Of a stretch of DNA of 64,000 nt, positions 43,634 through 43,678 are shown piece after piece (positions within the stretch are counted from its first letter, which is position 1; each line of letters opens with the position of its first letter). The DNA comes from Escherichia coli (GTDB taxonomy: Bacteria; Pseudomonadota; Gammaproteobacteria; Enterobacterales; Enterobacteriaceae). The notes under the pieces were generated by a model. It did no database searches. It saw only the letters and a program-made list of their open reading frames with translations, and was not told the DNA's origin. Where the stretch lies: assembly GCF_013122565.1 (NCBI RefSeq), contig NZ_CP053258.1, one strand, 5' to 3'. A program made the translations under genes and the position numbers.

Positions 43634-43678
43634 TATAACCGTGATCGATCGGTTATTATTAATCGATCGATCACGGTT
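43634..43678. promoter_or_regulatory. Perfect 17-bp inverted repeat separated by 11 bp (candidate operator or terminator)
   Basis: ataaccgtgatcgatcg-gttattattaa-cgatcgatcacggttat; contains four GATC sites. Confidence 0.5.

Follow-up and report, generated by a model that had tools for sequence, protein, structure and literature searches.

The palindrome lying between rlmC and a PTS-sulfatase operon of E. coli is real and conserved, and is most likely an ordinary stem-loop that previously went unannotated. Comparative sequence analysis makes it probable that this element works as RNA, as a terminator of rlmC and/or a protector of the 3' end of its transcript, and that it would in so doing insulate the PTS-sulfatase operon. 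Its practical value is mostly one of annotation, and current understanding is not challenged by it; what the palindrome marks is the edge, on the rlmC side, of an accessory island that ~10% of complete E. coli genomes carry, those of O157:H7 included.

The palindrome and its gene setting

Among the perfect hairpin-type inverted repeats (spacer of 20 nt or less) of the window, by which is meant the whole 64-kb stretch of DNA that was analysed, the palindrome is the longest, and it has no second copy there. Simulating the window 100 times with a first-order Markov model gave a longest arm of 9-12 bp, compared with the 17 bp observed. The original prediction had placed an inverted repeat with perfect 17-bp arms and an 11-nt spacer at 43634-43678; the perfect arms are real, but the coordinates were off by one or two bases (Table 1) and the spacer (GTTATTATTAAT, 43652-43663) measures 12 nt, with three more pairs inside it. 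In its extended form the palindrome has arms of 21 nt, which contain one mismatch and enclose a loop of 4 nt. Each arm does contain tandem GATC, as had been noticed: there are two tandem pairs, ~23 bp apart, and all four sites (43643, 43647, 43666 and 43670) fall within 46 bp. A scan of positions 41000-46000 against Rfam at a permissive E-value returned chance-level matches only (the hairpin scores 20.8 bits against a microRNA model with a gathering score of 70). For want of a meaningful match there, the palindrome is taken not to belong to a known RNA family.

The rlmC gene, the hairpin and the PTS-sulfatase operon are co-directional on the minus strand. In the order of transcription, the rlmC stop codon is followed by 48 nt, the hairpin, a further 186 nt and the IIC start codon (the original figures of ~50 and ~200 bp are close to these), and the gap between the hairpin and the promoter block of the operon is 15 nt. 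At the far end of the operon, artJ, on the plus strand with its end at 40218, runs toward the sulfatase gene. Between these convergent genes lies a second, perfect 13-bp hairpin (TTGCCGGAGTGGG/CCCACTCCGGCAA), where the sequence differs from that of K-12; it is likely to be a terminator, at the island's other edge. The ~40-bp patch separating the rlmC stop from the stem-loop exists in two barely alignable versions in E. coli, with near-identical sequence on either side: one version is that of the window, Sakai and PT62, and the other is that of O145, M121 and E. whittamii.

Table 1. Features between artJ and rlmC, by position in the window
Feature	Position	Strand	Basis or remark
13-bp hairpin	40227..40258	.	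island's artJ-side end
Sulfatase, last gene of the island	40269..41750	-	profile match and annotation in syntenic records
PTS IIB, ascorbate type	41763..42083	-	profile match and annotation in syntenic records
PTS IIC, ascorbate (SgaT/UlaA) family	42105..43448	-	NCBIfam NF009550, 964 bits; ATG at 43448
Putative promoter/operator block, PTS-sulfatase operon	43553..43622	-	conservation in 7 aligned loci
U-rich 3' tail, sense strand AUAUUGCUCUAUUUUUGCA	43616..43634	-	nearly invariant, E. coli vs Salmonella
Stem-loop (palindrome)	43635..43680	-	perfect 17-bp arms: ATAACCGTGATCGATCG (43635-43651) and its exact reverse complement CGATCGATCACGGTTAT (43664-43680)
A-rich 5' flank, sense strand AAAUAAUAA	43681..43689	-	last four bases are stem positions 43680-43677
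Variable patch, rlmC stop to hairpin	43686..43725	-	two versions in E. coli; unalignable with Salmonella
rlmC	43729..44856	-	ORF; annotated rlmC in syntenic E. coli records; stop at 43729

Folding and conservation of the stem

Folding of the palindrome is strong in comparison with shuffled sequence (z-score -7.8 as RNA and -8.9 as DNA; none of 200 shuffles folded equally well). Within a context of 131 nt the hairpin amounts to -30.7 kcal/mol, and for six natural alleles, all of which form this hairpin, the range is -20.7 to -28.8 kcal/mol. The stem comprises 17 to 20 bp, with eight G-C pairs in the perfect 17 bp (47% G+C); it is, in other words, a G+C-containing stem-loop, and it is located on the same strand as rlmC just past the end of that gene, as a terminator of rlmC would be. 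The A-rich 5' flank and the U-rich 3' flank (UUAUAUAUUGCUCUAUUUUUG), which can pair with one another in the predicted fold, give the hairpin its symmetrical, bidirectional look. Counted from the last G-C pair, the tail is UUAUAUAUUGCU and has 6 U in its first 9 nt (there are 4 T in the 8 nt that follow the full stem). Certain features count against a terminator. The U-tract is interrupted; a terminator consensus scan is positive on the plus strand only (tail TTATTTGGAA), the minus-strand tail falling under the threshold; and a stem of 17 to 20 bp with a 12-nt loop exceeds the dimensions of typical intrinsic terminators.

E. coli and Salmonella arizonae/diarizonae are 79% identical over rlmC and the island, and at this distance the stem has 3 differences in 34 nt, while about half of the loop differs and the 48-60 nt of upstream flank cannot be aligned. 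Among ten distinct alleles, two pairs have changed in both partners, 13-50 being found as C-G, U-G and U-A, and 15-48 as G-C, G-U and A-U. Standard pairs occupy 99.4% of the cells of this ten-allele alignment when it is read as the sense strand and 96.3% when it is read as the plus strand: six changes affect one side of a pair only, and they are G-U wobbles in the former and A-C mismatches in the latter. (One Salmonella diarizonae change favours the opposite strand.) Reduced to independent events, the strand asymmetry is ~3 against 1, which is not significant, and its leaning toward sense-strand RNA is suggestive only. The covariation as such is supportive and not conclusive, since shuffled alignments also attained the observed values (29 of 500 reached the covariation score, and 161 of 500 the number of pairs changed in both partners).

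Aligned with the window, the alleles of 566 E. coli genomes comprise one at 100%, 553 at 95-99% and 12 lower. The commonest allele (that of Sakai, O157) is imperfect as a DNA palindrome and fully paired as sense RNA by way of G-U. In UTME-3 and KK05-19 one arm has lost a 4-bp GATC unit (at about window 43662-43665); these alleles still fold, with 15-bp arms, at -20.8 kcal/mol, and the flanking versions differ between the two strains. From this pattern, the tandem GATCGATC seems to have slipped more than once. The 9-bp core GATCGATCG is nearly invariant between Escherichia and Salmonella, which also fits a DNA-level constraint and to that extent speaks against a reading confined to RNA.

The original prediction had included a bidirectional terminator among its readings. 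Its stem-loop or terminator component is the one favoured here, on account of same-strand location past the rlmC stop, stability, A- and U-rich flanks and compensatory changes; its attribution to island-free strains does not stand (see below). We infer termination or 3'-end protection to operate as follows. Transcription of rlmC would generate a hairpin of 17 to 20 bp on the minus-strand RNA, at the 3' end of the transcript. This hairpin might act on RNA polymerase as an intrinsic terminator of moderate strength or, after termination further downstream, might block 3' exonucleases in the manner of REP elements; the two actions might also be combined. By either route the hairpin would shield the CRP-type promoter, which lies 15 nt further down, against transcription continuing from rlmC. 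Literature searches found no Term-seq or RACE data, 3' ends or expression studies for ECs_0939/ECs_0940, and nothing usable on the island genes ECs0940 to ECs0942 and Term-seq in EHEC.

Two antitermination schemes were tried and rejected. A terminator/antiterminator pair would involve a short sense-strand hairpin AUAACCG-N8-CGGUUAU and the direct repeat CGGTTATTATT, neither of which is kept in Salmonella. A BglG-type RAT/antiterminator is at odds with the location of the hairpin, which is upstream and not downstream of the promoter block, and with the lack of conservation of the 48 nt preceding it.

The island, the cassette and the operon promoter

The proposal that the palindrome might be the native artJ/rlmC terminator, present also in island-free strains, is contradicted by its distribution: it is missing from K-12 and is found in 566 of 5426 complete E. 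coli genomes, in one copy each and always on the chromosome (a palindromic query makes each single locus appear as two BLAST places). The three island genes are likewise found in 566 of the 5426 genomes. The equality of these counts and the absence from K-12 identify the palindrome as part of the island. The island (PTS IIC, IIB and sulfatase; 3.5 kb) takes the place of the REP-containing rlmC-artJ spacer of K-12, which is 198 bp long and has a different small hairpin, two REP elements and no palindrome. The window belongs to E. coli proper: across potH-rlmC it is 97.9% identical to K-12, and homology stops within the last codons of rlmC. The island junction, judged against K-12, falls at window 43729-43737, and the C-terminus of RlmC varies: the window has ...LLVKM, other island strains have ...VKI, K-12 has ...VKQ, and Salmonella arizonae/diarizonae have ...LLCRL. 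O157:H7 Sakai is among the carriers; its island genes are ECs_0940 to ECs_0942, and its palindrome is at NC_002695.2 1,024,978-1,025,031.

A distant-mode search of all 5426 E. coli genomes yielded no further copies of the motif. BLAST with the palindrome gave no match to phages, and among plasmid entries it matched only E. coli records of 0.73 Mb and 4.9 Mb, none being in true plasmids. A scan of metagenomes with the pattern TGATCGATCG-N8-16-CGATCGATCA matched at least 120 stretches. The matches listed are mostly unrelated high-G+C sequence or (GATC)n microsatellites, and those among them that have the same flanks, 12 in number, are all at the rlmC-IIC locus. Neither this confinement of the listed same-flank matches to one locus nor the single copy per genome gives any sign of a mobile or repeated element.

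Comparison of window 39278-47458 with Salmonella arizonae and diarizonae puts rlmC and the island at ~79% identity and the neighbouring art genes at 82-84%. That the divergence of the island is near that of neighbouring genes points to an old and repeatedly lost locus rather than to recent transfer. IIC is inactivated in some strains, by an internal stop in PT62 and by IS1 insertions in ECNB21-M121 and ET201; judged by these inactivations, the cassette is decaying in parts of E. coli.

To find the cassette in other lineages, the IIC protein was used to scan a single genome of each species. The cassette follows rlmC and the palindrome in E. whittamii, in two further Escherichia species and in Salmonella enterica subsp. 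arizonae and diarizonae. The same IIC-IIB-sulfatase cassette occupies other neighbourhoods, without the palindrome, in Silvania confinis, Yokenella regensburgei and a Leclercia sp. The palindrome is found wherever the cassette follows rlmC (in Escherichia and Salmonella) and is absent elsewhere, a dependence on context that is consistent with a stem-loop serving rlmC; in the genomes compared, it tracks the rlmC junction and not the operon.

What does accompany the operon is a ~70-nt block upstream of IIC, which is kept in all seven aligned enterobacterial loci, including the three that have no palindrome, and which is likely to be the real promoter and operator. It contains a site (plus strand 43604-43619, TGTGA-N6-TTGCA, TGTGATTTGATTTGCA; TGCAA-N6-TCACA when read on the minus strand) that we take to be CRP-like by the textbook consensus, and an inverted repeat TAATCAAA...TTTGATTA at 43565-43601 (AATCAAA...TTTGATT). 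Since Silvania, Yokenella and Leclercia keep the block without the palindrome, the control region of the operon would begin downstream of the palindrome. Studies of operon regulation should look to 43553-43622, with its CRP-like site and AATCAAA/TTTGATT repeat, and not to the palindrome.

The cassette itself is widespread. The gene order IIC, IIB, sulfatase is constant in all 31 loci collected, which span Enterobacteriaceae, Bacillaceae, Lachnospiraceae, Erysipelotrichaceae and Olsenella; identity to the non-enterobacterial relatives (Firmicutes and Olsenella) is 56-69% for IIC and 60-68% for the sulfatase. No IIA is encoded in the E. coli island (only IIC, IIB and sulfatase are found), and no regulator either, the latter as the original prediction had it. 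An anaerobic sulfatase maturase lies near the Leclercia cassette. The substrate is presumably a sulfated sugar.

Alternative functions and known systems

Perfect dyad symmetry located 15 bp upstream of a CRP-like site, in an island that has no regulator of its own, suits an operator at which a dimeric, trans-encoded regulator would control the PTS-sulfatase operon from upstream, and the near-invariant GATCGATCG core is consistent with such a site. This part of the original prediction is nevertheless unlikely to be correct. Silvania, Yokenella and Leclercia keep both cassette and promoter block without the palindrome, and with no other copy of the motif in 5426 E. coli genomes or in the window, there is no regulon; neither a nearby cognate regulator nor further genomic sites are found. 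(No likeness to the OxyR, LacI-family or Cra consensus was seen on inspection by eye.) Moreover, arms of 17 to 21 bp far exceed the usual half-sites, two positions have changed in both arms with complementarity preserved, which a protein site would not require, 565 of the 566 E. coli genomes depart from the perfect allele, and two lineages tolerate a 4-bp loss in one arm.

Alternatively, the palindrome might have no present function and be a relic left in the DNA, or a feature produced by recombination, at the edge of the island (an inverted duplication arising at insertion, for example). Its location ~50 bp inside the island boundary, its single copy, the two very different versions of the adjacent 40-bp patch and the direct repeat CGGTTATTATT, which hints at a history of duplication, could all be understood in this way. 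The conservation described above makes a functionless relic quite improbable, however, because the stem has been retained with compensatory substitutions through the divergence of Escherichia and Salmonella (79% overall identity) while flank and loop decayed. It is linked to no signature of an integrase or mobile element, phages and true plasmids lack it, and the listed metagenome matches that share its flanks are all at the rlmC-IIC locus.

The clustering of GATC raises the question of a Dam-sensitive element affecting expression of the operon, either a switch of the pap, agn43 or gtr type or a GATC cluster that binds SeqA. The four sites fall within 46 bp, as two tandem pairs ~23 bp apart; they are retained in Salmonella arizonae (three of the four in diarizonae), and slippage by 4 bp has altered the count of GATC units in two E. 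coli lineages. The sites are, on the other hand, inside the stem, so that pairing alone explains their conservation; the conserved promoter block does not include them but lies 15 bp or more downstream; and they are missing where the cassette does not adjoin rlmC. No OxyR- or Lrp-like motif was recognised by eye, and a literature search found no report of unmethylated GATC sites at the rlmC-IIC locus. Control of the operon by Dam methylation is accordingly rated very unlikely. A second, DNA-level role of the hairpin, in which slippage-variable Dam sites would be bound by SeqA or by a trans-acting protein, is very unlikely too; were it true, expression of a widely conserved, uncharacterised PTS-sulfatase cassette would depend on methylation or replication state.

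The palindrome resembles the Dam switches of pap, agn43 and gtr in having clustered GATC upstream of an operon. It differs from them in that its GATC sites are outside a recognised regulator site and the promoter block, and in that the element tracks rlmC and not the operon. It also resembles REP/BIME: these too are extragenic hairpins at the 3' end of a gene, REP elements protect upstream mRNA from 3' exonucleases (a role that the palindrome may share), and in K-12 they occupy the equivalent position between rlmC and artJ. The palindrome has no REP similarity and no REP consensus, and it is confined to one locus per genome, in contrast with the many copies of the repeated extragenic palindromes (REP/BIME, ERIC). 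With regard to the intrinsic terminators of E. coli, the palindrome is set apart by an interrupted U-tract (UUAUAUAUU), a larger stem (17 to 20 bp, 47% G+C) and a 12-nt loop. What it has in common with them, bidirectional terminators included, is a stable stem-loop after a stop codon, an A-rich 5' and a U-rich 3' flank, and symmetry of the two strands.
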